Source: an uncultured delta proteobacterium (GTDB lineage Bacteria; Myxococcota_A; Polyangia; Fen-1088). Taken from it: 64,000 bases of DNA. The stretch covers positions 192,001 to 256,000 of the forward strand of contig CAWCMR010000005.1 of NCBI GenBank assembly GCA_963796685.1. The letters run 5' to 3'. Below the pieces are notes generated by a model. The model was not told the origin of the DNA and did no database searches. It was given only the letters and a program-made list of their open reading frames with translations. Positions 10 to 42,200 of this stretch are shown here, one piece after another. The first letter of the stretch is position 1. Each line of letters opens with the position of its first letter. The translations under genes and the position numbers were made by a program.

Positions 10-870
10 TTGTTCGCCCAGGAAAGCTCCCCCATGCCCGCGCCCGAGGCGGCCGGCCCGGCACCAGAAGCCACGGCGCCCGCCGAGCCCGGCGTCACGC
101 CGGCCACGGATGAGACCCCGGCCGCCGCCAGCGTGGCGGTGCCCGCCACCGCCGCGGTCAACGAGGCGAAGTATGGCCTTGCATTCCGCTTTCGCTGGAT
201 CTCGGTCCCAAGCTGGTTCCTAGGACTGTTCACGCAGAAGAACGTGCCGCTTTCAACCTACGGTTTCGCCCTGGAGGGCTTTCGCCGCAAGCACGACCGG
301 GACGACCCCAACCGCACCTGGGAGCTTTCCGTGGCCATCGGCTATCAAAACATGAGCCCACCCGATGGCTACTGGCTCGGCAAGGGCAAGCAGCCCATCT
401 ACAATGGAGACCCCAAGCAGGGGGACACGGACCTGGTCCAGTTCCGGAATTTCTCGCTCATCACCATGGACGCCGCGTTCATCTCTCGCCAGTACTTCAG
501 TCCCTACTTCGGTATCCACTACGGCGCCGGTTTGGGCCTGGCTGTCGTGCGGGGCAAGATCCTGCGCACGTCGGCAACCTACAACCAGGCAACGGGTCAA
601 TACACCGTCCAATCGGGCGGAAACCAGCTCTGCGACCCCTCTGCGAAATGCAATGAAGCCGCACTCGCCGCAACCTCGACTGGCCCCGACAACGGACCCG
701 GCGATCCGCACCGCTTCCAGGAGACCTCCGTCCCCGGTGCCATCCCCATCATCAACCTGCTCTTCGGGCTCGACTTTCCCATCCCCGATGCCAAAGGGCT
801 CGAGTTCCGCGTCGAGGGCGGCTTCTACGACGCCTTCTTCCTCGGCGGCACGGCTGGCTACGTCTTCTAG
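10..870 (+). CDS. Hypothetical exported protein, probable outer-membrane beta-barrel; true start may lie upstream of the window
   Basis: Pro/Ala-rich N-terminal linker, amphipathic beta-strand pattern, C-terminal aromatic signature GYVF, GC3-rich codons. Confidence 0.6.
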   Translation: MFAQESSPMPAPEAAGPAPEATAPAEPGVTPATDETPAAASVAVPATAAVNEAKYGLAFRFRWISVPSWFLGLFTQKNVPLSTYGFALEGFRRKHDRDDPNRTWELSVAIGYQNMSPPDGYWLGKGKQPIYNGDPKQGDTDLVQFRNFSLITMDAAFISRQYFSPYFGIHYGAGLGLAVVRGKILRTSATYNQATGQYTVQSGGNQLCDPSAKCNEAALAATSTGPDNGPGDPHRFQETSVPGAIPIINLLFGLDFPIPDAKGLEFRVEGGFYDAFFLGGTAGYVF

Positions 871-19215: not shown

Positions 19216-19219
19216 CTGG

Positions 19220-19969: not shown

Positions 19970-20004
19970 GGCACCATCAGCTAAAATCACCACCGGAGAT
20001 CGTC

Positions 20005-20208
20005 ATGGCCGCACCTGCACCTCAGCAGCTCTTCGAGAAGATCGCTCGTCTACCTCCTGCCCGTGTCGCAGAGGTCGAGGACTTCGTGGACTTCCTCGCC
20101 CTACGGAATACCGATCGTCAGCTCGCCCATGCCGCCGCCGCAGCTTCCGTGCCGGCCTTTGCCAAGGTCTGGGACAATCCCGAAGACGACGTCTACGACC
20201 AGACATAA
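20005..20208 (+). CDS. DUF2281-like antitoxin
   Basis: LFEKIARLPPARVAEVEDFVDFL...WDNPEDDVY; paralog at 29233. Confidence 0.75.
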   Translation: MAAPAPQQLFEKIARLPPARVAEVEDFVDFLALRNTDRQLAHAAAAASVPAFAKVWDNPEDDVYDQT

Positions 20209-20217
20209 GGGTCCACC

Positions 20218-20445
20218 ATGCCCTACCATCTCATCTTGATGGCCATCACCAGCCAGATCCGCCCGTCACCAACCGTGGGAGAGATCGCCGTCGTGCACTG
20301 GCAAGCCGCCGGGCTGCTCAAGCCGTCTGTCATCAAGCCCCTACTCACTACCATCGAGGCCAGCCTGGTCATCCGTCAGCTCGGCAAGCTTCACGCCGAC
20401 GACCAAGACAGCCTACGCAAGGTTCTCGCTGCGGTCATCGGCTGA
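20218..20445 (+). pseudogene. PemK/MazF toxin with a 36-codon internal deletion
   Basis: 75 aa versus the 111-aa paralog at 29451; lacks the VPFPFTD...KKRPAVV segment. Confidence 0.8.
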
Positions 20446-21651: not shown

Positions 21652-22230
21652 TAGATCTGTGTAATGCTTGTCGGCGCAATCTGCCGATTGGTCAGGTTGC
21701 AGAGACTTCCAGACGCTGCCATTTGCGCGTTCAAGAATGACTCTATGCCCTGGTAGTTGATCTGCCCGCTACTGATCATACTCGGCAAGGGACCCAATGT
21801 AGCCTGAACGCCGCCAAAGGGCTGCAGCTTCATCGCAACATCGACGGTCGTCGCCCATGCCTCATACTCGGTCCCACCAAGCAGGTGAGTGTACTCGTGC
21901 ATGAATCCAATTACTGTACTTTCGGTCGATGCATTCTGGTTGATGTAGATGGCCGTGCGGTTTTCGCCGCCGTAGCGCGTCCAGGCAATGGCCTGATCCT
22001 TCACTATTACGGTCTTTCCGTCAGGTGTCTGAGCCACAACGTCACCTGGGTCGTATAGGTACACCTTGACGTTCTCATCCTGGAGAACTCCAATTGTACC
22101 GTCCGCACCAATCAGCCCAAGTCCCTTTCTGAGACTATCGCCCGTGACACTGTGCCTAAGAACATTCGGGGAGTTGTTGTCTACAGTGGTGCCTTTCGAA
22201 TCGAACGGTAGGTCGCCCCCCTGCTGTGTT
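21648..22230 (-). CDS. Orphan RHS toxin tip 3, HExxH metallopeptidase-like
   Basis: Begins TQQGG at the core; FMHEYTHLLGGTEYEA motif; the ORF is open upstream to 22454. Confidence 0.7.
22216..22230. repeat. Putative att core CCCCCCTGCTGTGTT
   Basis: Identical 15-mers at 22216, 31090 and 39855; a 12-bp version at 21023. Confidence 0.9.
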
Positions 22231-22669: not shown

Positions 22670-22894
22670 ATGCCACCGCTTCCCATCATCTCCGGCGCTG
22701 ACTGCATTCAGGCTCTGCGAAAATTTGGATACGAGTTCGCCCGGCAGAATGGCAGCCACGTGCGCTTGGTGTGTCCCGGACGGATGCCCGTGACCGTACC
22801 GATGCACAAGCCGATCAAGCGCGGGACCCTGCGATCGATTCTCCGCACTGCCGAGATCGAGGTCGAGGTATTCGTGACCGCGTTACGTCGCTAG
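22670..22894 (+). CDS. hicA: HicA-family toxin
   Basis: ALRKFGYEFARQNGSHVRL...VTVPMH..IKRGTLRSILR. Confidence 0.9.
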   Translation: MPPLPIISGADCIQALRKFGYEFARQNGSHVRLVCPGRMPVTVPMHKPIKRGTLRSILRTAEIEVEVFVTALRR

Positions 22895-23109
22895 ACCGCG
22901 ACCTTCGTGATCTCGATTTGGCCCGGCAGCGTCCAGCCTTCGGCTGCCTGATTTTCAAGGCACAGCTCGATGGCTTCGCGGATGTTGGCCAGGGCCTCGT
23001 CCCGGGTGTCGCCCTGGCTGATGCAGCCTGGGATCACAGGACACTCGACGACAAAACCGCCATCTTCGTCGGGCGTCAAAATCACGGGCAGTTCATGCGC
23101 GGTGGCCAT
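22891..23109 (-). CDS. hicB: HicB-family antitoxin (short, no DNA-binding domain)
   Basis: DEDGGFVVECPVIPGCISQGDTRDEALANIREAIEL. Confidence 0.9.
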   Translation of the reverse strand: MATAHELPVILTPDEDGGFVVECPVIPGCISQGDTRDEALANIREAIELCLENQAAEGWTLPGQIEITKVAV

Positions 23110-24187
23110 GGGCCTAGTCTACCAGATTCTGGGACCAGGTCTTGGAGGGGAGCGGACCGACGATTGCCGGCGGCGAGCGCAGCGAGCCGCCTGTGCAATC
23201 GGCGGGACGCGAGCCGGGCGAGATGATGACCCTGTTCATGCTGATCGTCGAGGCGGAGGGCGCAAGCGGGAGCGGCAGAGGCGCCGTGGCCGGCGCCGGA
23301 GCCGCGGTGCCCAAAGAGCGCGCCGTCGGCCGAGGCACGATGCCTGCCCCTCGCCAGCCGGGCCCCGCACACGCGTGCAATGCACGCTGCAGGACGGCTC
23401 GGCCGCCGGACCGGGGCCCGTGGTCCGGCGCCGTTTCCCCCTAGGCGGAGCGGGCGGCGCCGTCCGCGGCGCTCAGATCGCCCGCGTAGCCAGAGCGCCC
23501 CTCCCCTTTGGGGATTCCTTAAAAAAAGGGGGTGCCAGGGGAGGGGTGTCCAGAGGGGAGGGGCGCGGCGGGGGAAACGGCGGCCAAAGCGTGCTTGCAC
23601 GCGTGTGCGTAAGGGGCCCGGCGTCGACCGTGGCGCGATGTCGGCGCCAGGCGCGCGCCGTGGTTTTGTGCACGATCGCCGCGCTGGCGAGCGAGAGCTG
23701 TCGTCGCCGCTTTCCCGGATGCAGCGACCATGCCGAGGCGTCCGATGCGAGCACAAGTTGACCGCCGCTGCGTCCCCGATGGCACTTGCGAGCGAGGCGC
23801 CGCGGCATGGGAGCGTCTACCGTGTGCCGCCGCTTTCTCCGATGGAGTCGCGCGCGCGTGCGCCCGGCAGGGGGCACGCGCGCACGACGGGGCTCGGGCG
23901 AAGATCGCGGCGCTGAGCGCCTGCACGATGGAGTGGACTGGGCCTTGCCAGCGCGAGCGCGGCGCTGGCCGGCGCTCATGTCCCGCGCACCCGCGCGCGA
24001 GCGCGTGCAAGGACCAGGACGCGGTGACCTCGGCACGGATCGCGGCGCTGCGAGCCTCGCACCACCCCGATGGAGCGGGCGCCCGTGCGGTCGCAGCTTG
24101 AGGAAATGCTGTGGCCCAGCTGAAGGTGGAGCGACGGCACGGGCGCCCGCGGGGCCGCAGGCACGGAGCGCGGCTCCCAGCCGCGGC

Positions 24188-24541
24188 TCAAGCGTGGCCA
24201 GATTGCCGCCGCTGGATCACGGTCTCGGTCTCGGCAAGCCACGCCTCGATGGCATCACCACCACCTTGTCCCGCCGCGATCATCAGCTTGCCCAGCATCA
24301 CCAAGCTCGTGCCGTCCAAGTTGTAAAAGACCTCGCCCACGGTCACGTGGCTGCAAGCGGTCCACAACGACCACGCCACCAGCAGCAGCAAGCGCTCGCC
24401 ACTCGACAATGGCCCGCCGCCGTGTTCTGCCAGATCCCTGGCCAGCACCGTCGGTCCCGCGTCGGTCCACAGCTCGGTCAGCCGAGCTCGAGCACAGAAT
24501 GCCCGGCACACCCGCGAAAGTTGCGACTCTGAGCTAAACAC
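24188..24541 (-). CDS. Conserved small element protein downstream of the recombinase
   Basis: Overlaps the xer 3' end; homolog at 33093..33443 keeps the frame. Confidence 0.7.
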   Translation of the reverse strand: MFSSESQLSRVCRAFCARARLTELWTDAGPTVLARDLAEHGGGPLSSGERLLLLVAWSLWTACSHVTVGEVFYNLDGTSLVMLGKLMIAAGQGGGDAIEAWLAETETVIQRRQSGHA

Positions 24542-25592
24542 GATCGTCCTCCTCCTCGCCGGACTCGGCGGCTAAAGTAGAAAGCAATTCCTCGGCGTCC
24601 TTCTCGCTGACCGCCGGCTTCTGGCCAGATTCCCGTCGACCGAGATGCGCCCCGGGGTGGGTCAGCTCGTGCACTTCCTTCAGCTTCTTGATCGATACCA
24701 GGGTGTAGATGCTCGTCGTCTCCAGGCTCGCGTGCCCTAGCATCGCCTGGATGAAGCGGATGTCCGCCCCGCTTTCCAGCATCAAGGTGGCCATCGTGTG
24801 ACGGAAAAGATGGCAACTCCCCACCTTGCCGATTTTCGCCTGCTCGATGTAGCCCCGCACGATGTCCGTCAGCGTGTGCGGCATGAAGCCGTTCCCGAGG
24901 TGCGAGATAAACAGCACGCCCTCGTCCGGCTCCACCACGTCCTTGGGCCGTACCTCGACGAGGTACTTTTCGATCCAGGAAAGCGCACGCTCGCCGATGG
25001 GCACCACACGATCTTTCCGGCCCTTCCCGAGCCGCACCATCAGCGTGCCGGCCTCTGGCTGCACGTCGTAGATCCCAAGCCTGACCAGCTCGCTCCGCCG
25101 GATCCCTGTCGAATACAGCGTCTCCAGCATCGCCCGGTCTCGGATCCCGCTTGGTTTCGTCACGTCCGGCAAGCTCAGGACGTGTTCCACCTCGGCGATG
25201 GTCAGCACGTCCCGCGGCAGCCGCCGATCCAGCCGAGGCAGATCGATCTCAGAAGCCGGATTGAAAAGGATCATGTTCGACTTCGCCATCCACTTGAAGA
25301 AGGCCAGCACCGCCGCCAGCCGCTTGTGTTGCGAGGCGATGGTCAGCGGCTTACCGAGCTTCGTCCGGTAGTAGAAGAGCCAGCGCTGGTAGCGCTCCAA
25401 GATCGGCCGCGTGACCTCCGTCGGGTTGCGCAGGCTGCGCTCTTCGCACCAATTGAAGAAAGCCCGCAGGTTGCCCTCGTTCCACTCGATGGTTCCCGGC
25501 GAAAAGTGCTTCGCCCGCCGCATGTCCAGAAACTCGGCAGCTCGTGCCCCGAGCGTCCCGTAGCTTGCAAGCTCGCGCAGTTTCCTGGCCAT
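24534..25592 (-). CDS. XerC/D-like tyrosine recombinase (element B)
   Basis: Full catalytic set: TGIRRSEL (R), GKGRKDR (K), HLFRH, LGH, TTSIY. Confidence 0.95.
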   Translation of the reverse strand: MARKLRELASYGTLGARAAEFLDMRRAKHFSPGTIEWNEGNLRAFFNWCEERSLRNPTEVTRPILERYQRWLFYYRTKLGKPLTIASQHKRLAAVLAFFKWMAKSNMILFNPASEIDLPRLDRRLPRDVLTIAEVEHVLSLPDVTKPSGIRDRAMLETLYSTGIRRSELVRLGIYDVQPEAGTLMVRLGKGRKDRVVPIGERALSWIEKYLVEVRPKDVVEPDEGVLFISHLGNGFMPHTLTDIVRGYIEQAKIGKVGSCHLFRHTMATLMLESGADIRFIQAMLGHASLETTSIYTLVSIKKLKEVHELTHPGAHLGRRESGQKPAVSEKDAEELLSTLAAESGEEEDDRV

Positions 25593-28500
25593 CAGTTCAC
25601 CTTGGCCGCGGCTGCGAGTACGACGGGCACATCAGGGTACGATGCGATTTTGGGCTCTACCCCCCTATGTGCTGTTTTCGGGTCAAAACGCCCGTTTTCA
25701 CCATTTCCATCGGGAATTGCAGCCGAAAGCTCACCCCGACCACCCCCCGACACCCCCCCGACTTCGGCCCGACTTGGCCCCGACTTCTTTGCCTCCAGCC
25801 CCGACCACCCGGCCAATACCCCCGACTTCTTTTCGTCGTACCCCAAGCTTCCAGGCTCGATCAGCCCAGACAGAAACGGCGTCCCGTCCTTGCCCTTGCC
25901 ATCATAGGCCAGCTCGTAGACAAAGCCCTGGCCCCGACTCCCGCGGTGCACCGCCAGGTATTCCAGATCTTCCAGGCGCCCAAGGTGGATCTTGAGCTGC
26001 GTGTTCCCCCAGCCGGTCGCGTCCCGCACCTCCCGCCGGCTGAAACGAAAATCCTTCCGCTCCATGCCCAGCCGCTGGCACTCCGCCGTCACGTACGCAT
26101 CTACCAGCAGCAAAAGCCGCCGCGTCTGCGGTGGCAGCTCGTCGAGCGATCGCCCAAGCACCTGGTCGGCCAGGCGGTTTGCCACCGAAATATCATCGAG
26201 AGTGACCTCGATGTACTCGATGGCCTGCACGTCCTGCTGTGCGGTCTTCACCGGCCGTTGATGCTGGTGGAGCAGTGCCACCGTCTCGATCAGCGTCAGG
26301 TATTTCATGTGGTCCCGTCGCGTTCGCGTCTGCCGATCTACAAACGTGAGGTCACGGGCATAGGGGTTCACCACCATCAGCGGACGCAGCAGGCGCTGCG
26401 CGTTCCGGTGGACCTTCAGCACGTCCTTCTTCCCCGCCCGTGCCAGCCGTCCCTCCAGCGTGTGTGCTTCGCGCTGGATCTTGTGAATGGCCTGCGTCTG
26501 CTCCCGGTCTTCGTCGACGGTCAGCACCAGGCACCGATTCAAAAGCTCCTCGTCGATCTCGATCGCCGTCGTGGTCAGAAAGATCATCACCGGTCCCTCG
26601 ACCCGGTATTCGTGCGTGATCAGCTTGCCGCTCTCTGGATCTTTGCCAGTGGATGCGATGGTCAGCTCGCCTTCGCTCTGCAAGACCTTCAGTGCGTACG
26701 AGGCCCGCGAGGCGCCTTCTTCCTCGACGATGGCGAGGATCTTGTGTTTCAGATTCGTCTCGCCCATGTAGAAGAGCGACTGTCCAGTCATCGCCGCGTA
26801 CTTCACCCGCTCTTCCTCGGGCACGAAGGCCAAGACCGCTTCCATCAGCGACGATTTCCCCGCTGCCGACGACGACTGGATCACCACCGCCAGGGGATCT
26901 TCCAGCTTGCGCGACACCGCCGCCAGGTAGCCGACGAGCTTGTTGGTTTCCTCGCCCACCACCCCGCAGCGACGGAAATCTTCGAGGATCCGATCGAGCA
27001 GCCGAGGATCTTTCAGCAGTGCCAGCGCCGCCGCCGTCTCCTCGTCGCTGAGCCGCACCGTCGTGTCTTTCGGCGCCAGTGCAGCCCGAATCTGCTGGTC
27101 TTGTAGTTGTTCCAGCTTCAGCAGCACCTTGCCCAGATCGGCCTTGATCACATCCTCAGTCACGCCAATCTCAAGCGCAGCCTGTTTCACGTAGATCGCG
27201 CGCTGTCGGGCGCCGTACACGTCCAAGGTGTCGACGTGGAAATGCTCGCCGCGACCGACGTGCAGGTTCACCTTCAGTGAGTCGAAGGCCGTGTTCTTCG
27301 CCAGGCCACGCACCCGATAACGACGGTCGCCGAAGCAAAAAATCACGTCTTCGCCCTGATGTTCGCACGGCACGTCTGCCACCGACACAGCCTCGGGCGC
27401 CGTCGTTTCTAAGATCGTCACCGGTGGTGGCTCCAGCGTGGCCTCCGTAGTAGGCGGGGGCTCAGCGTTGGCGGCTAAAGGAAGAGGGGCCGCCACGACT
27501 TCCGACTGCGGCGCTGGCGCCGCCGTGTCCACGGTGAGTTCGCGTTTTTCGCCCTTGCCCATGAAGACCGCGCTTTTCAGCGCCAGTTCCAGCGACTTCG
27601 CGGCCGGCGTCACCTTGCATGCGTATTCGTTCGCGTCCATGTCGCGAGGAAATTGCACGCGGTAGCACGAGATGCCCGCAGCCATCATCTGTGCGGCCAC
27701 CTTCTCCGCGCCACGCTCGCCGGCTTCGTCACGGTCAAACGCGATCAGCACCTGCGTGGTCCCGTAGCGCTTGAAGGCTGCCAGATGCTCGGCAATCGGG
27801 CTTTCCACCCCATAGATCGAGGTGACGTTGCGGAAGCCGTGGCACCAGAAGGTCAGGGCATCGATCAGCGCCTCGCACAGGATGATCGACTTCGACACCC
27901 GCAAGGCTTCCCAGTTGAAGATCCCTCGGTGCGGGCCGGGCAGATACATATGCAGGGGCGTTCCCTCGCGCAGCCCTGCTGTGATCTTCCGCCCGTACAT
28001 CCCCGCCACGTTTCCTTCTTCGTCGAAGATCGGGATCACCACCGAGCCGGTCATGTGCTCGTGCCCGCTCTCCCGCAAAATTCCCAGCTTCTGTAGCCGC
28101 CCCCGGATCTCGCTGCCGGCCTTCCACGCCCGCATCGGCAAGCGCAGCCCCAGCGTCCGGTTGGCGAAGCCCAGCTTAAAGCGGTCGATCATCTCCGACG
28201 ATTGCAGCCCCCGCCCTTCCAGGTACTTCACCGCCTCCGGGCTCTGCTTCAGCGTCTCGTGGTAGTAGCCCACCACCTGCGCCATGATCTCCCGGTCATC
28301 CGCATCCGCCTGCACAGGCGCCGCCAGTTTCCGGATCGTCGCCGTCTTCACCACGTTCGTCGACGGCGACGTCAAAGGCAGATCGGCCCGCAGCAGTTCC
28401 ACCGCGTGCCGAAAGGAAACGCCCTCGGCCTTCATCACCCAGTCGATCACCGACCCGCCCACCTGGCAGGCACCGAGGCAGTGCCAAAGGTTCTTCCGAG

Positions 28501-28660
28501 AGCTGATCACCAGCGACGGCTTCTTGTCGTCGTGAAACGGACACAGGCCAATCAAGTCCGCCCCCTGCCGCTTCAGTACCACGCCCCGTGCCTCCGCCAG
28601 CCGCTGCACCGACACCTCGGACTTCAGCTTCTCGATCTCGGACTCCGGGATTCGGGCCAC
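25592..28660 (-). CDS. CHC2 zinc-finger/Toprim DNA primase fused to a P-loop ATPase and wHTH (element B)
   Basis: CPFHDD..WHCLGAC, LCEALIDAL, AFDRD, SSAAGKSS Walker A, IVEEEG. Confidence 0.92.
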   Translation of the reverse strand: MARIPESEIEKLKSEVSVQRLAEARGVVLKRQGADLIGLCPFHDDKKPSLVISSRKNLWHCLGACQVGGSVIDWVMKAEGVSFRHAVELLRADLPLTSPSTNVVKTATIRKLAAPVQADADDREIMAQVVGYYHETLKQSPEAVKYLEGRGLQSSEMIDRFKLGFANRTLGLRLPMRAWKAGSEIRGRLQKLGILRESGHEHMTGSVVIPIFDEEGNVAGMYGRKITAGLREGTPLHMYLPGPHRGIFNWEALRVSKSIILCEALIDALTFWCHGFRNVTSIYGVESPIAEHLAAFKRYGTTQVLIAFDRDEAGERGAEKVAAQMMAAGISCYRVQFPRDMDANEYACKVTPAAKSLELALKSAVFMGKGEKRELTVDTAAPAPQSEVVAAPLPLAANAEPPPTTEATLEPPPVTILETTAPEAVSVADVPCEHQGEDVIFCFGDRRYRVRGLAKNTAFDSLKVNLHVGRGEHFHVDTLDVYGARQRAIYVKQAALEIGVTEDVIKADLGKVLLKLEQLQDQQIRAALAPKDTTVRLSDEETAAALALLKDPRLLDRILEDFRRCGVVGEETNKLVGYLAAVSRKLEDPLAVVIQSSSAAGKSSLMEAVLAFVPEEERVKYAAMTGQSLFYMGETNLKHKILAIVEEEGASRASYALKVLQSEGELTIASTGKDPESGKLITHEYRVEGPVMIFLTTTAIEIDEELLNRCLVLTVDEDREQTQAIHKIQREAHTLEGRLARAGKKDVLKVHRNAQRLLRPLMVVNPYARDLTFVDRQTRTRRDHMKYLTLIETVALLHQHQRPVKTAQQDVQAIEYIEVTLDDISVANRLADQVLGRSLDELPPQTRRLLLLVDAYVTAECQRLGMERKDFRFSRREVRDATGWGNTQLKIHLGRLEDLEYLAVHRGSRGQGFVYELAYDGKGKDGTPFLSGLIEPGSLGYDEKKSGVLAGWSGLEAKKSGPSRAEVGGVSGGGRGELSAAIPDGNGENGRFDPKTAHRGVEPKIASYPDVPVVLAAAAKVN

Positions 28661-28813
28661 AGCGCGCCTCCCTTCAAAATCCTGTCAAGTGGAAGATACT
28701 TGTTTTTACCAGTTCCATCGACTCGCCTAGATGGTACTAGTATAATGGTATTTATGCAAGCGCTAATTTCACCATCGGGGCCTGGTCCCGAAATTCGGCC
28801 TTACGATCTGGGC

Positions 28814-29179
28814 ATGCCACAGAGAGCCCCGAAGACCCGGCCAGCCGAGGGCGAGCGCTTGGCCGACCTACGTCGCGCCGCCGGCCTAACCCAAGTCGAG
28901 TTCGCCAAGCTCGTCGGCGAAACCCAGCAAAACATCACCTTCTGGGAGCACAGCGACAAGCCACCACGCTCCGACGTCCTGCCCAAGATGGCCAAGGTCC
29001 TCGGCTGCTCCGTTGAGCAGCTCCTCGGCATCTCACCGCTCGCCGATCGTCGCCCAGGCCCCGTTGGGAAGACCCAACGGGCGTTCGAGGAGGTCGCACG
29101 CCTCCCGCGTTCTCAGCAGGACAAGATCGTCGAAATCGTCGAGGCCCTCGTCGACCAGTACAGACGCAAGGCTAGCTGA
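28814..29179 (+). CDS. XRE-family HTH repressor (element B)
   Basis: RLADLRRAAGLTQVEFAKLVGETQQNITFWE; TATAAT at 28741 upstream. Confidence 0.88.
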   Translation: MPQRAPKTRPAEGERLADLRRAAGLTQVEFAKLVGETQQNITFWEHSDKPPRSDVLPKMAKVLGCSVEQLLGISPLADRRPGPVGKTQRAFEEVARLPRSQQDKIVEIVEALVDQYRRKAS

Positions 29180-29450: not shown

Positions 29451-29786
29451 ATGCCCTACCGCTTCGGAGACGTCATCGTCGTTCCCTTTCCCTTCACCGA
29501 CCAGTCCGCCACCAAGAAGCGCCCCGCCGTCGTCGTCAGCTCCGAGGCGTATCACCGCGAGCGGCCCGACCTGATCCTGATGGCCATCACCAGCCAGGTG
29601 CGGCCTGCGCCCACGGTTGGCGAGGTCGCTGTCCTGCACTGGCAAGAGGCCGGCTTGCTCAAGCCTTCGGTCATCAAACCCCTGCTCACAACTATCGAAA
29701 CAAGCCTCGTCCTCCGCCAACTCGGCACCCTTCACGCCGATGACCAAGCCAGCCTACGCAAAGTCATTGCCGAAATTCTCGGATGA
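29451..29786 (+). CDS. PemK/MazF-family toxin
   Basis: GDVIVVPFPFTD...KKRPAVVVS...MAITS...GLLKPSVI. Confidence 0.9.
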   Translation: MPYRFGDVIVVPFPFTDQSATKKRPAVVVSSEAYHRERPDLILMAITSQVRPAPTVGEVAVLHWQEAGLLKPSVIKPLLTTIETSLVLRQLGTLHADDQASLRKVIAEILG

Positions 29787-30540: not shown

Positions 30541-31104
30541 TGGTCTCCATTCCCTAATTGATAATTGTACGGCCAGTTTGCCACTCGGCTGGAATAGGGC
30601 GAGTTCCTGAGAACGTCAGTCAGTTCCGCAATCTTGTCAACCTCAACGCCCCATTCACTCTCCAGACCGGGGTTGCCCGCGAATGAGTACTGATTCGTGA
30701 CATCAAGTCCCCTTCGGTACCCTTCAAGTTCGTTTAGGGCGCGGGCGTACTTGTAGTTCTGGGAACTCGGATTAGCAAAATTCGCAGACATGACCTGTCC
30801 TACGTGAACTCCCTCGTGCTCGACTACGACGTTGAGAAGCGCATCGCCTTGAAACGCATCTGGCGAAATCTTGACCCGTCCGTACATGTCCGTTACGCCA
30901 AGCTTCTCCGTTCCCGCAAGTGTCTGGTCGATAGTTGCTCGGCCTTCCAAAGACGTCCCTTTGGTGTACGTATCTAATGTCGCCTGATCTACTGACAACC
31001 CCGCTCCATCACCGCCCATCGGTGTTCCCTCCATCATTGCCTTTGTGGTCACCAGGTTCTGCACCTTGTCCGCGCCGCTGCCTCCCCCACCCCCCTGCTG
31101 TGTT
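30510..31104 (-). CDS. Orphan RHS toxin tip 2, HExxH metallopeptidase-like
   Basis: Begins TQQGGGGG at the core; VEHEGVHVGQ...NELEGY motif; the ORF is open upstream to 31331. Confidence 0.7.
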
Positions 31105-31480: not shown

Positions 31481-31777
31481 CTACCGTTGTGTCCAGTAGC
31501 CTTGCCGACGCTTGAGATGAGCGACGGCCACGATTCCGATCTCGTCGTCGGATATCTCACGATAGATGATGGCGTAGGGATAGGGTCCAAGGAGGACGCG
31601 ACGGACGCCGCCTATCAAGGGCCATCGGCGTGGTGACTCGACGATTTCACCGACACGATGGCGAATGGCGGCAATGAAGCGAGCACCCAAGCCAGCCAGA
31701 CGCTCCTCGTACCAAGAGGCAGCATCCTGCAGCTCTGCCTCGGCGAGAGGATTGAAGCGAAGGCGTCTACTTGCCAC
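31481..31777 (-). CDS. RelE/ParE-family toxin
   Basis: AEAELQDAASWYEERLAGLG...PYPYAIIYRE...VAVAHLKRRQGYW. Confidence 0.85.
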   Translation of the reverse strand: MASRRLRFNPLAEAELQDAASWYEERLAGLGARFIAAIRHRVGEIVESPRRWPLIGGVRRVLLGPYPYAIIYREISDDEIGIVAVAHLKRRQGYWTQR

Positions 31778-31991
31778 CGAAGCGTTGCTCGAGACGAGCG
31801 AAGACCTCGTCGGCCGGGATGGTCGCGACTCTGCCGGCATCGACGTCTTCGATGCGGCGTTGGATTTCGGCTTCCCAGTACTCCCCGAGATCTCCAAGCT
31901 CCAGGCTTGCCGCGAGCTTGTCGACCAGGACCTCACGCTGCTCTTGCGGCAGCTGAAGTGCGGCTTCCAGAATTTCCTGCGACTGCAGCAT
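31767..31991 (-). CDS. Addiction-module antitoxin
   Basis: MLQSQEILEAALQLP...WEAEIQRRIED; paralog of 17375..17596. Confidence 0.85.
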   Translation of the reverse strand: MLQSQEILEAALQLPQEQREVLVDKLAASLELGDLGEYWEAEIQRRIEDVDAGRVATIPADEVFARLEQRFGGK

Positions 31992-33092
31992 GCTCCAAGT
32001 GTAGCGCGCCCAGGAGCGCGATGGGGCGTCATTCTGCACGGGTAGTTCCAGCTCTTGGAGGGCAGCGGCCCGACGGTTGCGGGCGGCGCAGCCGCCATGC
32101 AAGCGGCGGGACGCGGGCCGGGCGAGATGATGGCCCTGTTCACGCTGATCGTCGTGGCGGAGAGCGCAAGCGCGAGCGGCGGAGACGCCGCGGCCGGCGG
32201 CGGAGACGCGGTGGTCTGAGAGCGCGCTGTCGCCTGAAATGCCAAGCCTGCCCCGCGCCAGCCGGGCCCCAGCACACGCGTGCAATGCACGCTGCAGGAC
32301 GGCCCGGCCGCCGGACCGGGGCCCGTGGTCCGGCGCCGTTTCCCCCTAGGCGGAGCGGGCGGCGCCGTCCGCGGCGCTCAGAATCGCCCGCGTAGCCAGA
32401 GCGCCCCTCCCCTTTGGGGATTCCTTAAAAAAAGGGGGTGCCAGGGGAGGGGTGTCCAGAGGGGAGGGGCGCGGCGGGGGAAACGGCGGCCAAAGCGTGC
32501 TTGCACGCGTGTGCGTAAGGGGCCCGGCGTCGATCAAGCTGCGATGTCAGCACCAGGCGCGCGCCGCCACTTTGTGCACGATCGTTGCGCTGGCGAGCGA
32601 GAGTTGTCGTCGCCGCTTTCCCGGATGCAGCGACCATGCCGAGGCGTCCGATGCGAGCACAAGTTGACCGCCGCTGTGTCCCCGATGGCACTTGCGAGCG
32701 AGGCGCCGCGGCATGGGAGCGTCTACCGTGTGGCGCCGCTTTTCCCGATGGAGTCGCGCGCGCGTGCGCCCGGCAGGGGGCACGCGCGCGCGACGGGGCT
32801 CGGGCGCAGATCGCGGCGCTGAGCGCCTGCACGATGGAGCGGACTGGGCCTTGCCAGCGCGAGCGCGGCGCTGGCCGGCGCTCACGTGCGCGCACCCGCG
32901 CGCGAGCGCGTGCAAGGACCAGGACGCGGTGACCGGGGCACAGATCGCGGCGCTGCGAGCCACGCACCTGCACGATGGAGCGGGCGCCCGTGCGGTCGCA
33001 GCTTGAGAAAATGCTGTGGCCCAGCTGAAGGTGGAGCGACGGCACGGGCGCCCGCGGGGCCGCAGCCACGGAGCGCGGCTCACAGCCGCTGC

Positions 33093-33443
33093 TCACGCGT
33101 GGCCGGTGTTCCGCTGCCCGATCACTTTCTCAGCGTCGGTGATCCACGCCTCGATGGCCTCAGCACCCCGCCCCGCCGCGATCATCAATTTGCCCAGCAT
33201 GGTCAGGCTCGTGCTGTCCAAGTTGTAAAAGACCTCGCCCACCGTCACGTGGCTGCAAGCGCTCCACAGCGACCACGCTACCAGCAGCAGCAAGCGCTCG
33301 CCGCTCGACAATGGCCCGCCGCCGTGTTCTGCCAGATCCCTGGCCAGCACCGTCGGTCCCGCGTCGGTCCACAGCTCGGTCAGCCGAGCTCGAGCACAGA
33401 ATGCCCGGCACACCCGCGAAAGTTGCGACTCTGAGCTAAACAC
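33093..33443 (-). CDS. Conserved small element protein
   Basis: Homolog of 24188..24541. Confidence 0.7.
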   Translation of the reverse strand: MFSSESQLSRVCRAFCARARLTELWTDAGPTVLARDLAEHGGGPLSSGERLLLLVAWSLWSACSHVTVGEVFYNLDSTSLTMLGKLMIAAGRGAEAIEAWITDAEKVIGQRNTGHA

Positions 33444-34494
33444 GATCGTCCTCCTCCTCGCCGGCTTCGGCGGCTAAAGTAGAAAGCAATTCCTCGGCAG
33501 CCTGTTCGCTGACCACCGGCTTCTCGACACTCTCCCGTCGACCAAGATGTGCTCCGGGGTGGGTCAGCTCGTGCACTTCCTTAAGCTTCTTGATCGACAC
33601 CAGCGTGTAGATGCTCGTCGTCTCGAGGCTCGCGTGCCCAAGCATCGCCTGGATGAAGCGGATGTCCGCCCCGCTCTCCAGCATCAAGGTGGCCATCGTG
33701 TGCCTGAAAAGATGGCAGCTCCCTACCTTGCCGATCTTCGCCTGCTCGATGTAGCCACGCACGATGTCCGTCAGGGTGTGCGGCATGAAGCCGTTCCCGA
33801 GGTGCGAGATAAACAGCACGCCGTCGTCGGGCTCCACCACGTCCTTCGGCCTCACCTCGACGAGGTACTTTTCGATCCACGACAGCGCACGCTCGCCGAT
33901 GGGCACCACGCGGTCTTTGCGCCCCTTGCCCAATCTCACCATCAGCGTGCCGGCCTCTGGCTGCACGTCGTAGATCCCAAGCCTGACCAGCTCGCTCCGC
34001 CGGATCCCTGTCGAATACAGCGTCTCCAGCATCGCCCGGTCTCGGATCCCACTCGGCTTCGTCACGTCCGGCAAGCTCAGGACGTGTTCCACCTCGGCGA
34101 TGGTCAGCACATCCCGCGGTAGCCGCCGGTCCAGTCGCGGCAGATCGATCTCCGACGCTGGATTGAAAAGGATCATGTTCGACTTCGCCATCCACTTGAA
34201 GAAGGCCAGCACCGCAGCCAGCCGCTTGTGCTGCGAGGCGATGGTCAGCGGCTTGCCGAGCTTCGTCCGGTAGTAGAAGAGCCACCGCTGGTAGCGCTCC
34301 AAGATCGGCCGCGTGATCTCCGTCGGGTTGCGCAGGCTGCGCTCTTCACACCAATTGAAGAAGGCCCGCAGGTTGCCCTCGTTCCATTCGATGGTTCCCG
34401 GCGAAAAATGCTTCGCCCGCCGCATGTCCAGAAACTCGGCCGCCCTCACCCCGAGCGTCCCGTAGCTTGCAAGCTCGCGCAGTGTCCTGGCCAT
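33436..34494 (-). CDS. XerC/D-like tyrosine recombinase (element A)
   Basis: Near-identical to 24534..25592; catalytic residues intact. Confidence 0.95.
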   Translation of the reverse strand: MARTLRELASYGTLGVRAAEFLDMRRAKHFSPGTIEWNEGNLRAFFNWCEERSLRNPTEITRPILERYQRWLFYYRTKLGKPLTIASQHKRLAAVLAFFKWMAKSNMILFNPASEIDLPRLDRRLPRDVLTIAEVEHVLSLPDVTKPSGIRDRAMLETLYSTGIRRSELVRLGIYDVQPEAGTLMVRLGKGRKDRVVPIGERALSWIEKYLVEVRPKDVVEPDDGVLFISHLGNGFMPHTLTDIVRGYIEQAKIGKVGSCHLFRHTMATLMLESGADIRFIQAMLGHASLETTSIYTLVSIKKLKEVHELTHPGAHLGRRESVEKPVVSEQAAEELLSTLAAEAGEEEDDRV

Positions 34495-37400
34495 CAGTTC
34501 ACCTTGGCCACGGCTGCGAGTACGACGGGCACATCAGGGTACGATGCGATTTTGGGCTCTACCCCCCTATGTGCTGTTTTCGGCTCAAAATGCCCGTTTC
34601 CACCATTTTCCTCGGGTTTTCCAGGCAAAACCGCCATGCTCGACCCACCCTCAATGGGGGCTCGTTGGGGGCTCAATGGGGGCTCGAACTTGCCTTTTTG
34701 AAGCTCGAACTCGCCTTTACCATGCTCGTTCTTTTCGTCGTACCCGCAGCCGCCAGCCGGTTGCACCTCGAAGAGCCCCTGCAGAAACGGCGTACCGTCC
34801 TTGCCCTCACCGTCGTAGAGCAGCTCGTAGACGAAGCTCTGGCCACGCGTTCCCCGATGCACCAGCACGTATTCCAGATCGACCAGCTTGTCCAGGTGGG
34901 TCCGTACCTGAAAGTCCGTCCACCCCACCGCATCCCGCACTTCCTTGCGCGTGAAGCGGTAATCCTTCCGCTCCATCGCCAGCCCTTTGCAGCCTGCTGC
35001 CACCGTCTGGTCGAGCAGCATGAGCAGCCGCCGCGTCTGCGGCGACAGTTCATCGAGCGATCGCCCCAGCACCTGGTGTGCAAGTCGATTCGCCACCGCG
35101 ATGTCGGCCAGCGTGACCTCGATGTATTCGACCACCTTGCCGTGGTGCTGAGCCGTCTTCACCGGCCGTTGCTGCTGGTGCAGAAAAGCGATCGTCTCGA
35201 TCAAGGTCAGATACTTCATGTGGTCCCGTCGCGTGCGCGTGCGGTGGTCCGGGAAGCGCAGCTCGCGCGCGTGAGGGTTGACCACCATCAGCGGGCGAAG
35301 CAGACGGTGTGCATTTCGATGCACCTTCAAGATCTCTTCTTTTTCTCGGCGGACAAGCTGCCCTTCGAGGCTACGCGCCGACCGCTGCAATTCGTGGATC
35401 GCCCGCGTTTGTGCGCGGTCCTCGTCGACGGTCAGCACCAGGCAGCGATTGAGCAATTCCTCGTCGATCTCGATCGCCGTCGTGGTCAGGAAGATCATCA
35501 CCGGTCCTTCCACCCGGTACTCGTGCGTGACCAGCTTCCCGCTCTCTGGATCTTTGCCGGTGGATGCGATGGTCAGCTCGCCTTCGCTCTGCAGGACCTT
35601 GAGCGCATACGAGGCTCGCGAGGCGCCCTCTTCCTCGACGATGGCGAGGATCTTGTGCTTGAGGTTCGTCTCGCCCATGTAGAAGAGCGACTGCCCCGTC
35701 ATCGCCGCGTACTTCACCCGCTCTTCCTCGGGCATGAAGGCCAAGACAGCTTCCATCAGCGACGATTTCCCCGCGGCCGACGAAGACTGAATCACCACCG
35801 CCAAGGGATCTTCCAGCTTGCGCGACACCGCCGCGAGATAGCCGACGAGCTTGTTCGTCTCCTCGCCCACGACGCCGCAGCGACGGAAATCCTCGAGGAT
35901 CCGATCGAGCAGTCGAGGATCCTTGAGCAGTTGCAATGCTGCCGCCGTCTCCTCGTCGGTGAGCCGCACCGTCGTGTCCTTCGGCGCCAGCGCCGCGCGG
36001 ATCTGCTGGTCTTGCAGTTGTTCCAGCTTCAGCAGCACCTTGCCGAGATCAGCCTTCAGCACGTCTTCGTTCACGCCGAGCTCGGTCGTGGCTTGCTTGA
36101 GGAAGATCGCCCGTTGCCGGGCGCCGTAGATGTCCAGGGTGTCGACGTGGAAATGGTCGCCACGACCGGCGAGCAGGTTTACCTTCAGCGAGTCGAAGGC
36201 CGTGTTCTTCGCAAGACCTCGCACGCGATACCGACGATCGGCGAAGCAAAAGATCACGTCCTCACCTTGGTGCTCGCACGGCACGCCTGCCACCGGCACA
36301 GCCTCGGGCGCCGTCGTCTCCAAGATCGTCACCGGTGGCGGCTCCGTCGTGGCTTCCGCGGTGGGCGAAGCCTCCGCGTTGGCAGCTAAAGGAGGATGGT
36401 CAGCCGCCGCTGTTGGCTCCGTCGGCGTTTCGGCTGTCACCGCGGCCGCGGTCTGGATCGCGGGCGTCTCCGCAATCGGGCGCGCGCCCTTGCCCATGAA
36501 GACCGCGCTCTTCAACGCCAGCTCTAACGACTTCGCCGCTGGCGACACCTTGCACGCGTACTCGTTCGCATCCATGCCGCGAGGAAATTGCACCCGGTAG
36601 CACGAGATGCCCGCGGCCATCAGTTGCTCGGCCACCTTCTCGGCTCCACGTTCGCCAGCATCATCGCGATCGAAAGCGATCAAGACCTGCGTGGTCCCGT
36701 AGCGCTTGAAGGCTGCCAGGTGCTCGGTGATATGACTTTCGATGCCGTACACCGAAGTCACATTGCGGAAACCGTGGCACCAGAAGGTCAAGGCATCGAT
36801 CAGCGCCTCGCACAGGATGACGGACTTCGACAGCGGCAGGGCCTCCCAGTTGAAGATCCCGCGATGCGGTCCGGGCAGATACATATGGAGGGGCGTTCCT
36901 TCCCGCAGCCCTGGCGTGATCTTCCGCCCGTACATCCCCACCACGTTGCCTTCCTCGTCGAAGATCGGAATCACCACCGAGCCGTTCATGTGCTCGTGTC
37001 CGCTCTCGCGCAATACCCCCAGCTTCTGCAGCCGCCCCCGGATCTCGCCTCCAGCCTTCCACTGCTTCATCGGTAGCCGCAGCCCCAGCGTTCGGTTCGC
37101 GAAGCCCAGCTTGAAGCGGTCGACCATCTCCGACGACTGCAGCCCCCGACCTTCCAGGTACTTCAGCGCCTCCGGGCTCTGCTTCAGCGTCTCGTGGTAG
37201 TAGCCCACCACTTGCGCCAAGATCTCCCGGTCGTCCGCATCCGCCTGTACCGGCGCCGCTAGCTTGCGCACCACCGATGTCTTCACCACGTTCGTCGATG
37301 GCGACGTCAAAGGCAGGTCGGCCCGCAGCAGCTCCACCGCGTGCCGAAACGAAACGCCTTCTGCCTTCATCACCCAGTCGATCACCGATCCACCTGCCTG

Positions 37401-37595
37401 GCAGGCACCGAGACAATGCCAAAGGTTCTTCCGTGAGCTGATCACCAGAGACGGCTTCTTGTCGTCGTGAAAAGGACACAGCCCGATCAAGTCCGCCCCG
37501 TGCCGCTTCAGCTCCACGCCCCGCGCCTCTGCCAGCCGCTGCACCGACACATGGGCCTTGAGCTTCTCGATCTCGGACTCGGGGATTCGGGCCAC
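34494..37595 (-). CDS. CHC2/Toprim primase-ATPase-wHTH (element A)
   Basis: Same motifs as the element B copy; divergent linker and C-terminal wHTH/tail. Confidence 0.92.
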   Translation of the reverse strand: MARIPESEIEKLKAHVSVQRLAEARGVELKRHGADLIGLCPFHDDKKPSLVISSRKNLWHCLGACQAGGSVIDWVMKAEGVSFRHAVELLRADLPLTSPSTNVVKTSVVRKLAAPVQADADDREILAQVVGYYHETLKQSPEALKYLEGRGLQSSEMVDRFKLGFANRTLGLRLPMKQWKAGGEIRGRLQKLGVLRESGHEHMNGSVVIPIFDEEGNVVGMYGRKITPGLREGTPLHMYLPGPHRGIFNWEALPLSKSVILCEALIDALTFWCHGFRNVTSVYGIESHITEHLAAFKRYGTTQVLIAFDRDDAGERGAEKVAEQLMAAGISCYRVQFPRGMDANEYACKVSPAAKSLELALKSAVFMGKGARPIAETPAIQTAAAVTAETPTEPTAAADHPPLAANAEASPTAEATTEPPPVTILETTAPEAVPVAGVPCEHQGEDVIFCFADRRYRVRGLAKNTAFDSLKVNLLAGRGDHFHVDTLDIYGARQRAIFLKQATTELGVNEDVLKADLGKVLLKLEQLQDQQIRAALAPKDTTVRLTDEETAAALQLLKDPRLLDRILEDFRRCGVVGEETNKLVGYLAAVSRKLEDPLAVVIQSSSAAGKSSLMEAVLAFMPEEERVKYAAMTGQSLFYMGETNLKHKILAIVEEEGASRASYALKVLQSEGELTIASTGKDPESGKLVTHEYRVEGPVMIFLTTTAIEIDEELLNRCLVLTVDEDRAQTRAIHELQRSARSLEGQLVRREKEEILKVHRNAHRLLRPLMVVNPHARELRFPDHRTRTRRDHMKYLTLIETIAFLHQQQRPVKTAQHHGKVVEYIEVTLADIAVANRLAHQVLGRSLDELSPQTRRLLMLLDQTVAAGCKGLAMERKDYRFTRKEVRDAVGWTDFQVRTHLDKLVDLEYVLVHRGTRGQSFVYELLYDGEGKDGTPFLQGLFEVQPAGGCGYDEKNEHGKGEFELQKGKFEPPLSPQRAPIEGGSSMAVLPGKPEENGGNGHFEPKTAHRGVEPKIASYPDVPVVLAAVAKVN

Positions 37596-37748
37596 GGCGC
37601 GCCTCCCTTCAAAATCCTGTCAAGTGGAAGATACTTGTTTTTACCAGTGCCATCGACTCGCCTGGATGGTACTAGTATAATGGTATTTATGCAAGCGCTA
37701 ATTTCACCATCTGGGCCTGGTCCCGAAATTCGGCCTTACGATCTGCGC

Positions 37749-38114
37749 ATGCCACAGAGAGCCCCGAAAACCCGACCAGCCGAGGGCGCACGCCTGGCCG
37801 ACCTACGTCGCGCCGCCGGCCTCACCCAAGTCGAGTTCGCCAAGCTCGTCGGCGAGACCCAGCAAAACATCACCTTCTGGGAGCACAGCGATAAGCCACC
37901 GCGCTCCGACGTCCTGCCCAAGATGGCCAAGGTCCTCGGCTGCTCCGTCGAGCAGTTCCTCGGCATCTCACCGCTCGCAGATCGCCGCCCTGGCCCCGTT
38001 GGGAAGACCCAACGGGCGTTCGAGGAGGTCGCACGTCTCCCGCGCTCTCAGCAGGACAAGATCGTCGAGATCGTAGAGGCCCTCGTCGACCAGTATCGGC
38101 GCAAGGCTAGTTGA
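37749..38114 (+). CDS. XRE-family HTH repressor (element A)
   Basis: Near-identical to 28814..29179. Confidence 0.88.
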   Translation: MPQRAPKTRPAEGARLADLRRAAGLTQVEFAKLVGETQQNITFWEHSDKPPRSDVLPKMAKVLGCSVEQFLGISPLADRRPGPVGKTQRAFEEVARLPRSQQDKIVEIVEALVDQYRRKAS

Positions 38115-39295: not shown

Positions 39296-42200
39296 TTATG
39301 GGAAGTACATTCTTTGCCCAAGCATAGCTTTGAACCAGTCGGTAAGAACAAACTCCTGCGGCATTTGGAGGGATGACAATGGAACTGTGTAGCTTTGACC
39401 ACTACTGAATGGGGCAAACATGTTTCCCATTCCCGGTTGCCACTTGCCAGACAAAACATAGTTGACAGCTGTCTTGCCGCCCGTCATGACCCAATCGCCT
39501 GCCTTCAGCCCCTCACTTCCCCAGCGCGAGACAAGGACAAGACGATCAGAGTTTGCCGCAACAACGGCTCCAGTACTACCACCGACGAGTCCCACTTCAG
39601 GTGCAGTTAGACCCAACCCCTCCAATAGACCCGGCGCCGCTGCAACACCAGCAATTCCCACGAGGTCAACGGCAGCTCCCACTGCCGCCCCACGAAGTAA
39701 ACCACTCTGGTACTCCGGCGTCCGTTGCATGGCGTAGTCCGGAAAACAATTGTCCATCGCACACGCGATATCTGGTCTCCTGAGCTTTCCAAGGGACATG
39801 CCCGCTTCATCATCAGGGGCAAGAACCTCGGACAAGTCTCCTCCTCCTCCCCCGCCCCCCTGCTGTGTTGCCTGGTCAACAGGGTTTGTGTGGCTGAAAG
39901 CCATAGACAGGGCGGCGGCGACCATGCCGTTGGCGGCACCTATGACTACGTTGTCGCCGAGGCTGCCGCCGGTGATGGGCGTCATAACCGCTGCCGCGAG
40001 GCCGCCAGCAATAGTGCCTCCCAATAGCTGACCGATGGGGTTACCGCCACCGATCTCCGCGCCGAAGTTCCCGAATGCGTACCCTGTGCCGAAGGCAAAG
40101 GCGCTTGCAGCGATGGTCGAGTCCCATGGGGCACCGGATTCGATCGCCGCGGAGGTGGTAACGGCCGCTAGCGCCATCGCGGCGTAAGTGCACCCGGCCC
40201 CCGAGGTGCCGATGCACACGGTGAGGACGATGAGGGGGCCGAATATCTGCCCGACCCCGGCCAACCCTTCCAACTGGTCTGACCAGAAATTGAACCCCGT
40301 CGGATCCGTGTACCGCAGAGGGTTATCCGCGGCGTAGCTGTAGCGGTTGTAGCTCTGCAGATCTGACGCGAACTGGACGTTAGGGTCGGGCGAAAGAAAA
40401 CGACCGACCGTTGGGTCGTAGATACGCCCGTTCATGTTCACGAGCCCCAGGCTAGGGATCGTTTCCTGGTCGGTAAAACCCCGATTCCCCGCTGGCGAGG
40501 CGAAGGTCGGCGGGTCGGCAACCTGGCCACTTGGGCTGCGGATCGCGCCCCAAGGGTCGTAACCGATCATACTGGCGCCGGGGCCGTCGGCAGGGGCGCT
40601 CGTGACGTGGCCATGTTCGTCGCTCGCCGCCGTCACGGAGCCGATGTGGTCGAAGTGGTGGTACTCGGTCTTGGGTGTTGTCGGGGTCGAAGAATCCTCG
40701 GTTACCACCTGGATGGCAAACGCGCTCCCACCGTGCGCCGCGCCCGCATAGATGAAGTGCGAGTGCTCGACGGTTGCGCCACGCGTCTTGCGCTCGTATA
40801 TGCTCTTGCCCGTAGCCCCAAGGCCCACGTACACCGTGCGCGACAGCGTGCTGTTGCCCGAGCTCCCGAGCGCCCCGTCCCCCGTGCCTACCGCCTGCAC
40901 CACCCGCAACCCATCCGCGCCGTAAATGAAGTCCGCTGTCTTTGTCTCGCTCCCTGTTCCACTGGTTAGCCGCGTCGCTTTGTTGGCCGCGTTCCACTCC
41001 ACCGTGCGGTCACCCACACTTAGCAGGTTTCCGTTCGCGTCGTAATTGTAGGTAGGGCCGTCGTCTATCTGGCAAACTGCGTGGGGGCCCGCATCGCGCG
41101 CTCCCGCCAGGCATCCCGTCCCGTACTTGTAACTCCTGCCTGCCTTGGTTTGCAGGTTCCCGAGTTCATCGTACGTGTAGCTTTCCGGGTCGTAGCCTTG
41201 CGCTGGGACCTGCACCGTAGCACTGAGCAAACGGTCAAGCGAGTCATAGCCGAAGGTCTCGCTCGCGGCTAAGCCGTTTGCGCCGTCCGTGCGCTGGCGC
41301 GCACGCAGGTTTCCCGCCTCGTCAAAGGCATACCCCCACTTCTGGATCACGTTGTCGCCGTCCGCATGTGCCGTGCTCGTCCTGCCGAGCAGCCACCCGG
41401 TCGCGTCGTTGCGCACTGACGCAGTCTCCACCCCGTTCCCTAACACCTCGTCAGTCACCTGTCCCGCCGCGTTCATCGCCGTCGCCTCCCACATCACCGC
41501 ACCGGTGGCGTCGTTCGCAACGTAATGCAGGTATCCGGCCTTTGTGTACACGTACTTCACTGCGAATCGATTGCCCTTGGCCTCAGGATAGCGCAAAAGA
41601 ATCGGACGGCCGAAACGATCATAGCCGTACGTCGAGCGAAACGTGCTGCCATCCGCGCAATCGGTTACCTCGTCCACGTCGCCAAACCCCGTGTAGCGGT
41701 ATGAACGTCCGGCCTGTTTCTCGCCAGCCCCTGGCGCCGGCGCAAACTCTAGCTGGCACGCACCCGCGAGTCGCGAGTCGCTCGGGCTCACCATTGCCGC
41801 GAGCTTTCCGATGCCATGCGGGGCGGCGTCGTAGATCCACCGCGCGGTTCCGCTGTCGTCGTCGCGCTGGACCACCCGCCCCAACGCGTCGTACGTCATG
41901 TAGCTTGGCCTGACTTTGCCGTCGGTCTGAACCACCAGATCGCTGAAGCTGTTGTACTGATAGCCCCAGTCACCAAGGTCCGGATCGTGGGTCGCCTGCT
42001 TGCGGCCACGAGCGTCGTATGTAATATGCACGGCATTGCTCGTGTCCGCGTCCGAGGCGCACACGTCGGTCGGCGACGCAGTGTAAGCCAGGTTGCCGTC
42101 GGCATCATACGCAAACGAAATGGTGACCCCGTTCGCATCGGTAACCGAGGAGATCTTCCCGAGAGCATTCTTGGTTTCGGAGCGCGTCCGCGACTCGCCG

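Follow-up and report, generated by a model that had tools for sequence, protein, structure and literature searches.

Within the 64,000-nucleotide stretch of DNA analysed here (hereafter the window), two neighbouring elements, A and B, each carry a run of short, regularly spaced repeats at the end of a shared gene, raising the question of what reads these repeats and to what end. The preliminary description of the locus had proposed, by analogy with the iterons within lambda O, that each array is an intragenic replication origin paired with a binding domain of the same protein, giving each element a replication specificity of its own.

The approximately seven CCCGAC repeats first described at 25735–25830 in element B were located as exactly seven copies of fixed spacing, starting at 25735, 25746, 25757, 25768, 25779, 25800 and 25821 (11, 11, 11, 11, 21 and 21 nt on the forward strand). 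The different repeat set described for element A at about 34640–34730 proved to be seven copies of CTCRW (starts at 34639, 34650, 34661, 34672, 34683, 34704 and 34725) with spacing identical to that of B, a shared feature that had been missed; the helix segments quoted for the two elements were correct on re-reading of the sequences. Each array sits at the 3' end of a gene whose product joins a DnaG primase to an MCM-like helicase and a predicted winged helix (Table 1). Runs of four CCCGAC copies phased at 11 nt occurred twice in the window, both in B, and 0.00 times in 100 shuffles, so the B array is not due to chance. When the window was scanned with a phased seven-copy template, B scored 35/35 and A 32/35, and the top 14 positions all fell within these two tracts. 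An Rfam scan of 19000–40000 returned no match.

Table 1. Features of elements A and B and of related loci (window coordinates unless a locus is named)
Feature	Position	Strand	Basis or remark
Iteron-like array B	25735..25826	-	seven GTCGG pentamers (coding strand), spacing 21,21,11,11,11,11
Iteron-like array A	34638..34728	-	seven CGAGC/TGAGC-type pentamers, spacing as in B
Swapped specificity cassette, ~750 bp (ATPase-domain end, winged helix, array)	25736-26488	-	A/B comparison
Primase-helicase of B, 1022 aa	25592..28660	-	Pfam/NCBIfam, AlphaFold, Foldseek
Primase-helicase of A, 1033 aa	34494..37595	-	helix WTDFQVRTHL, specificity positions occupied by F and R
Predicted winged-helix domain of B, about aa 844-917	25910..26131	-	predicted model
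Putative recognition helix of B, aa 885-898	25967..26008	-	model and covariation
Specificity residues of B: codon T887; codon K890	26000-26002; 25991-25993	-	covariation
TACGAC, left arm of inverted pair, just upstream of array	25835..25840	-	family-conserved
Downstream conserved part	25619..25678	-	A-rich box and right arm(s)
A-rich AAAACAGCAC box of B	25669-25678	-	
RTCGTA right arm(s) of B	25638-25643, 25619-25624	-	
XerC-like tyrosine recombinase of B	24534..25592	-	NF002331/PRK01287, 428 bits, cutoff 371
XerC-like recombinase of A	33436..34494	-	97% identical to that of B
ORF with divergent XRE-family HTH repressor of B	28202..29179	+	true start probably near 28800
ORF with XRE HTH repressor of A	37467..38114	+	
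att-like core AACACAGCAGGGGGG, unit A left end	39855..39869	-	inside 3015-aa SpvB/FG-GAP/RHS gene (39296-48343)
att-like core AACACAGCAGGGGGG, A/B boundary	31090..31104	-	start of orphan toxin-tip-like ORF
att-like core AACACAGCAGGGGGG, unit B end and start of third, truncated unit	22216..22230	-	
Toxin-antitoxin pairs of units	31481-32285, 29451-29786, 22670-23109, 19966-20445		
Duplicated array units	L086 12330-12790 and 21170-21640; L001; L055 1190-1700		

The elements lie in an imperfect 6.1-kb duplication (23135–29179 versus 32048–38114, 87% identical), each copy of which carries a divergent XRE repressor, a CHC2/DnaG/Toprim gene of ~1030 aa and a PRK01287-type XerC. Protein and DNA around the helix had been called near-identical between A and B, which holds for aa 1–370 (92%) and aa 431–724 (94%) of the primase–helicase and for XerC (97%), but not for aa 725–940, where identity excluding the helix is just 70–72%. 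Four-fold sites differ at 30/46 positions in aa 725–835 versus 41/149 in aa 431–724. Given this lowered identity and the raised synonymous divergence across aa 725–940, A and B differ by a cassette of ~750 bp and not by the helix alone. Elsewhere in the window, self-comparison revealed a degenerate repeat cluster at 14970–16000 with a copy at 2798–2960, an inverted 133-bp match, and long paralogous ORFs (51095–54973 and 59947–63930) of ~68% DNA identity.

The protein of element B comprises, in order, a CHC2 zinc-binding domain, a DnaG/Toprim core, a beta-rich domain, an MCM-like AAA+ ATPase, a winged helix and a disordered tail. A and B both carry zinc-finger, Toprim, Walker A/B and arginine-finger-like motifs, primase and ATPase signatures that do not vary across the alignment. 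An AlphaFold model of B built from a 55-sequence alignment (mean pLDDT 76) was matched by Foldseek to DnaG and to MCM subunits (MCM E 9e-9 to 9e-7). A sequence search of the PDB matched the primase half only, and tblastn of the helicase half against a phage collection gave no match. The ATPase region is Pfam PF27228 (MTBMA_p00010_2nd) in the window protein and in all 120 homologues listed, and its first Atlas matches were to the same family (0.98). MTBMA_p00010 is presumably a locus tag of plasmid pME2001. The whole of pME2001 works as a replicon, and the gene goes unnamed in the accessible part of the paper (PMC8609365). Our literature search found no iteron or helix code for PF27228. For the final domain of B, the model predicts a helix-helix-helix-wing fold. 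Searched in isolation, this domain gave zero Foldseek matches at E ≤ 0.001; its best VIA-align matches were winged helices including ORC2, Cdc6 and MarR (Z 8.6–9.4, rmsd 2.2–3.9, 72–83 aligned residues), values that single out no one family. We treat it as a predicted winged helix on the strength of VIA-align and the topology of the model.

A genome scan recovered at least 590 relatives, and the best 80 of these at least 590 were kept (76 loci), a set that leans toward closer relatives, to which plasmid and E. coli regions were added. Winged-helix matches numbered 108 (4 incomplete; 88 unique), and removal of six of the 88 (four near-duplicates, a copy that lacked an array and a Leptospira copy whose array fell past the scan range) left a final set of 82 elements, 81 with enough helicase for a tree and with an effective number of 49.5 at 80% identity. 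The family ranges over Acidobacteria, Myxococcota, Proteobacteria and Planctomycetes. Arrays were anchored by self-similarity and a flank profile seeded from five pentamers, the helix sequence being used solely to fix the frame, and one anchor was moved by one base on account of a frameshift. The phased template scored better in the gene tail than upstream in 73/77 elements, with three ties and one lower score.

Mutual information between the pentamer and 445 protein columns (aa 484–928) pointed to the third helix of the predicted winged helix. Column 890 ranked first for bases 1 and 2 (0.44 and 0.45 bits; runners-up 0.15 and 0.24), column 887 ranked first for bases 3 and 4 (0.56 and 0.43 bits; runners-up 0.28 and 0.33), and I891, which with N886 forms the secondary specificity residues of the B helix, was the top column for base 5. 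Lysine at 890 accompanies GT at bases 1–2 (49/52) and arginine accompanies CG, GG, AA or TG (R890 with non-GT in 28/28), while at bases 3–4 threonine at 887 goes with CG (54/56), phenylalanine with AG, asparagine with TG and glycine with CA (non-T with non-CG in 25/25). The two residues dissociate doubly, 887 carrying 0.05 bits on bases 1–2 and 890 carrying 0.02 bits on base 3, and all four combinations of 890 and 887 were found (K/T with GTCGG, R/T with CGCGG, K/F with G[GT]AGC and R/F with CGAG[CG]). Along the helicase tree, K/R changes 19 times, and 14.5 of 15 independent pairs were concordant with none opposed (p 6e-5); for T versus non-T at 887, 10.9 of 12 independent pairs were concordant, again with none opposed (p 1e-3).

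Prediction extended beyond the set. Among 201 held-out protein tails, 168 were predictable and 131 array-like, and the prediction gave the best-fitting pentamer in 117/131, against 75.4 when shuffled (maximum 86); predictions other than GTCGG were correct in 20/33 cases, with most misses off by one base. The tail of P0034 is a true exception, combining R890 with a GTCGG-compatible sequence. Five new DNA elements yielded four right predictions and one wrong, and in the second element of L092 the pentamer present was GCCGG where GTCTG had been predicted. Covariation across homologues, the check named by the preliminary description, therefore extends down to single residues (81 elements), and such sequence evidence makes it very probable that the winged helix recognises the array. 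The proposal that each element has a distinct specificity stands for A versus B but not in general: co-resident arrays differ in pentamer in 4/13 multi-copy loci or genomes (the window, L007, L062 and L092) and share one in 9/13, so incompatibility avoidance is not a general requirement.

The array persists outside the reading frame and therefore acts as DNA. It lies partly or wholly past the stop codon in L007, L064 and L082 (upstream stops or frameshifts), has been duplicated in tandem, flanks included, in the primase–xerC interval of E. coli (L086/L001) and Massilia (L055), and in Leptospira is wholly intergenic, with the same spacing and the pentamer TTCGC; its intragenic position is incidental. 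On the Leptospira plasmids L085 and L091, arginine replaces the near-invariant Q888 of the helix, and parA/parB-type genes follow the unit. The flanks are also conserved, whatever the specificity type: TAYGAY precedes the array in 66/82 elements (2.6% of background windows) and its reverse complement RTCRTA follows it in 64/82 (background 3.1%), in all three frames, with the inverted arms 185–186 nt apart in 24/53 measured pairs and an A-rich AAAAC[GA]C-type box between them in 47/82. Across the 82 elements, the AT excess is weak (+0.11 at +100..120), and reverse-complement pentamers, as expected of an opposed iteron set, show no positional peak. At one locus, read by eye, in a remote relative from the Bacteroidota that has two recombinase genes (L090, 9155–9270), opposed GGGTC/GACCC repeats surround an AT-rich gap 3' of the gene and resemble a PICI origin.

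Each element is part of a larger unit. The 15-nt core AACACAGCAGGGGGG occurs three times in the window, each copy followed by a different toxin-tip-like sequence, which delimits units of 8765 bp (A) and 8874 bp (B), and we infer that XerC integrates the unit at this core inside polymorphic-toxin genes. That a shared core joins an RHS-type gene to two orphan tips suggests integrase-driven replacement of the toxin C-terminus. A third unit (18878–19969 and 17341–18720) retains an XRE repressor and a primase ending after the zinc finger, and adjoins a REP-associated tyrosine transposase-like gene. Toxin–antitoxin pairs differ per unit (ParE with an addiction-module partner, MazF/PemK and HicAB), and unit A carries an SseB-family gene (38155–38979, + strand) opposite to the toxin gene. 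The motif YYYYCTTTAGCYGC recurs at 27478, 36389, 24575, 33477 and 31363 (-) and at 31300 and 22426 (+), with 276 matches on both strands near the 82 elements; its sites fall in disordered primase linkers, in the C-terminal end of XerC and close to the att-like core, often as a TTA codon in GC-rich hosts.

From this architecture and the precedent of SaPI, PICI and SCC elements, it is quite likely that the array functions as an origin, and we consider it likely, on sequence grounds, that the array is specifically the initiator-binding part of an origin read by the winged helix of the element's own primase–helicase. The pairing of repeats with their own binding domain, as first proposed, is supported by the single-residue covariation. 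The recognition helix would enter the major groove, where bases 1–2 would be read by residue 890 (with 886) and bases 3–5 by residue 887 (with 891); spacings of 11 and 21 nt would set the copies on one DNA face, which would suit several ring-helicase subunits. Having loaded, this helicase would unwind the A-rich stretch on the 3' side of the array, with priming by the fused primase, perhaps at the conserved inverted TACGAC/GTCGTA pair. Point mutations of the helix and exchange of the ~750-bp cassette holding helix and array together, as between A and B, would both shift specificity, and the origin would serve an XerC-integrated unit of ~8.8 kb through which a polymorphic-toxin gene gains a new toxin tip. 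Two features count against an origin, the single direct iteron set and the weak AT-rich stretch, both unlike PICI origins. GC3 skew (primase 0.072 versus xerC 0.003, higher in 56/73) was set aside as uninformative because the codon use of the two genes differs.

It is unlikely that the winged helix instead binds the array as an operator or roadblock controlling its own gene or the coupled xerC. Covariation demonstrates recognition alone, the array lies 143–234 nt ahead of the xerC start and a strong unwinding element is absent in the 82 elements, all of which would suit such control; but a consensus scan of 25500–26100, across the B array, found no sigma-70-like promoter or terminator, the xerC start of B overlaps the primase stop, which makes a promoter of its own unnecessary, and a separate XRE repressor is present. 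An array of six to seven phased sites between conserved flanks would also go beyond the usual operator, and the domain is fused to a primase–helicase with intact motifs.

There is a small chance that helicase loading at the array serves recombination, or amplification of toxin tips in place while the unit remains integrated, with no free replicating circle. Relatives form tandem arrays downstream of Rhs, CdiA, TpsA and similar genes, 60/5426 complete E. coli genomes carry them at a median of 6 places per carrier, and Bartonella provides a precedent, run-off replication starting at an origin derived from a phage and accompanied by a Toprim gene (PMC5496983). XerC and the repeated att-like core, on the other hand, describe an excisable unit, and circular records of one unit exist. 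These small circular records, three in the family, were rejected as proof of autonomous replication: L001 corresponds to a single unit from a tandem array in E. coli, and looping out or assembly collapse could account for its circular form. Amplification in place is in any case compatible with an origin and not an exclusive alternative to it.

Helix and repeats might also covary merely through co-inheritance on a swapped cassette, with another protein or none reading the repeats, which we regard as very improbable. A and B do differ by one block, and their close kin carry either the entire B block (P0002–P0017) or the entire A block (P0018–P0024) on near-identical ATPase cores; a tree of the cassette alone had too few columns and was poorly resolved (2 starred pairs, p 0.5), so the case against linkage within cassettes comes mainly from the column scan. 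Yet two residues govern separate base pairs in all four combinations, and the helix predicts the array better than does the linker between the two. In leave-one-out prediction of the exact pentamer by nearest neighbour, with close kin removed, nine helix residues succeeded in 62/81 elements and the two residues in 53/81, compared with 28/81 for the remainder of the winged helix plus the linker to the array and 19/81 for the helicase; the commonest pentamer covers 29/81. XerC was ruled out as the reader, being 97% identical between A and B and failing as a predictor (14/78 exact pentamers, no column above 0.18 bits). In the mixed arrays of L037 (helix at 1565) and L069 (helices at 4380 and 13068), copies near the helix are CGCGG-type, and far copies are GTCGG-type and match the K890 helix, which fits change in place; these arrays are possible intermediates of a specificity switch. 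That the repeats merely encode a low-complexity protein tail has a negligible chance, for although aa 941–1022 over the repeats are predicted to be disordered (AlphaFold pLDDT <50), the 11-nt spacing places copies in all three frames, and the arrays past stops or frameshifts, the intergenic duplicates and the wholly intergenic Leptospira arrays contradict it.

The origin reading can be set against known replication modules. Lambda O has no primase or helicase, binds through an N-terminal domain and has its iterons in its own gene; the original analogy stands for iterons within an initiator gene, a position that is optional here, but an O-type initiator that needs a separate loader is not matched by the fused primase–helicase, and SaPI/PICI Rep, SCCmec Cch and P4 alpha are closer. 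The Ccr recombinases of SCC are of the serine type, and SCC has separate priming proteins, in contrast to the fused DnaG primase and PRK01287-type tyrosine recombinase here. P4 alpha has an SF3/D5-like helicase; the listed Foldseek matches of the whole-protein model for the helicase are MCM chains. According to excerpts of the P4 work, alpha unites a Toprim primase, a helicase and a repeat-binding winged-helix domain in one polypeptide (PMC4234260), as the window proteins combine all three in one chain. SCCmec Cch, as described in sections of PMC7581432, is an MCM-like self-loading helicase with a C-terminal winged helix, a likeness shared by the window elements, and Cch2 has a putative origin of direct pentamer repeats (AAGTG) between helicase and recombinase genes (same sections of PMC7581432).

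Accessible parts of the SaPI literature describe a Rep whose C-terminal winged helix binds iterons of 5–6 nt just 3' of rep (PMC9371898, PMC7581432), and the rep–ori modules of Gram-negative PICIs, in a similarly partial source, replicate plasmids (PMC6092414). As far as these sources go, SaPI/PICI Pri-Rep-ori modules share with the present elements a primase and helicase (sometimes fused in SaPI/PICI), a C-terminal winged helix, penta- or hexanucleotide iterons at the 3' end of rep, a divergent repressor and an integrase. SaPI/PICI origins are expected to hold six to twelve iterons, and A and B have seven each, with a tail peak in 73/77 elements. In PICI origins as portrayed there, an AT-rich gap is flanked by two iteron sets of opposed orientation, in contrast to the one direct phased set here; also unlike SaPI/PICI, the origin would be mostly overlapped by the gene tail and the unit lies inside polymorphic-toxin genes. 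The unit ORFs scanned included no recognisable packaging or interference genes. The system is akin to SaPI/PICI, SCC and P4 yet a member of none, standing outside all compared systems by its one direct phased array, its MCM-like motor fused to DnaG, its XerC and its toxin-gene target.

A targeted literature search, which covered few subscription journals, did not find the element family or the helix–iteron code described, and this is an unusually clean natural recognition code on an apparently undescribed element. Initiator–iteron specificity has been known case by case, as for the WH2 domain of pPS10 RepA, which sets iteron specificity according to the accessible text (10.1101/2024.09.03.610885); here it can be followed residue by base across one family, with two helix residues predicting most of the pentamer site, making it testable how an essential protein–DNA pair shifts specificity yet keeps its function. 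With somewhat better than even confidence, we propose that undescribed, widespread, self-replicating integrative elements swap the toxin tips of Rhs, CdiA, TpsA and FG-GAP/RHS proteins, using an initiator whose nearly separable two-residue origin code is often rewritten and traded as a helix-plus-origin cassette. If so, the code, which predicts a set of compact orthogonal replicons, would offer a natural set of potentially orthogonal replicons, about a dozen or more in number, and neighbouring toxin cassettes could amplify independently of one another. The elements also suggest that orphan toxin–immunity arrays behind Rhs/CdiA genes are delivered by replicative elements and are not passive debris.
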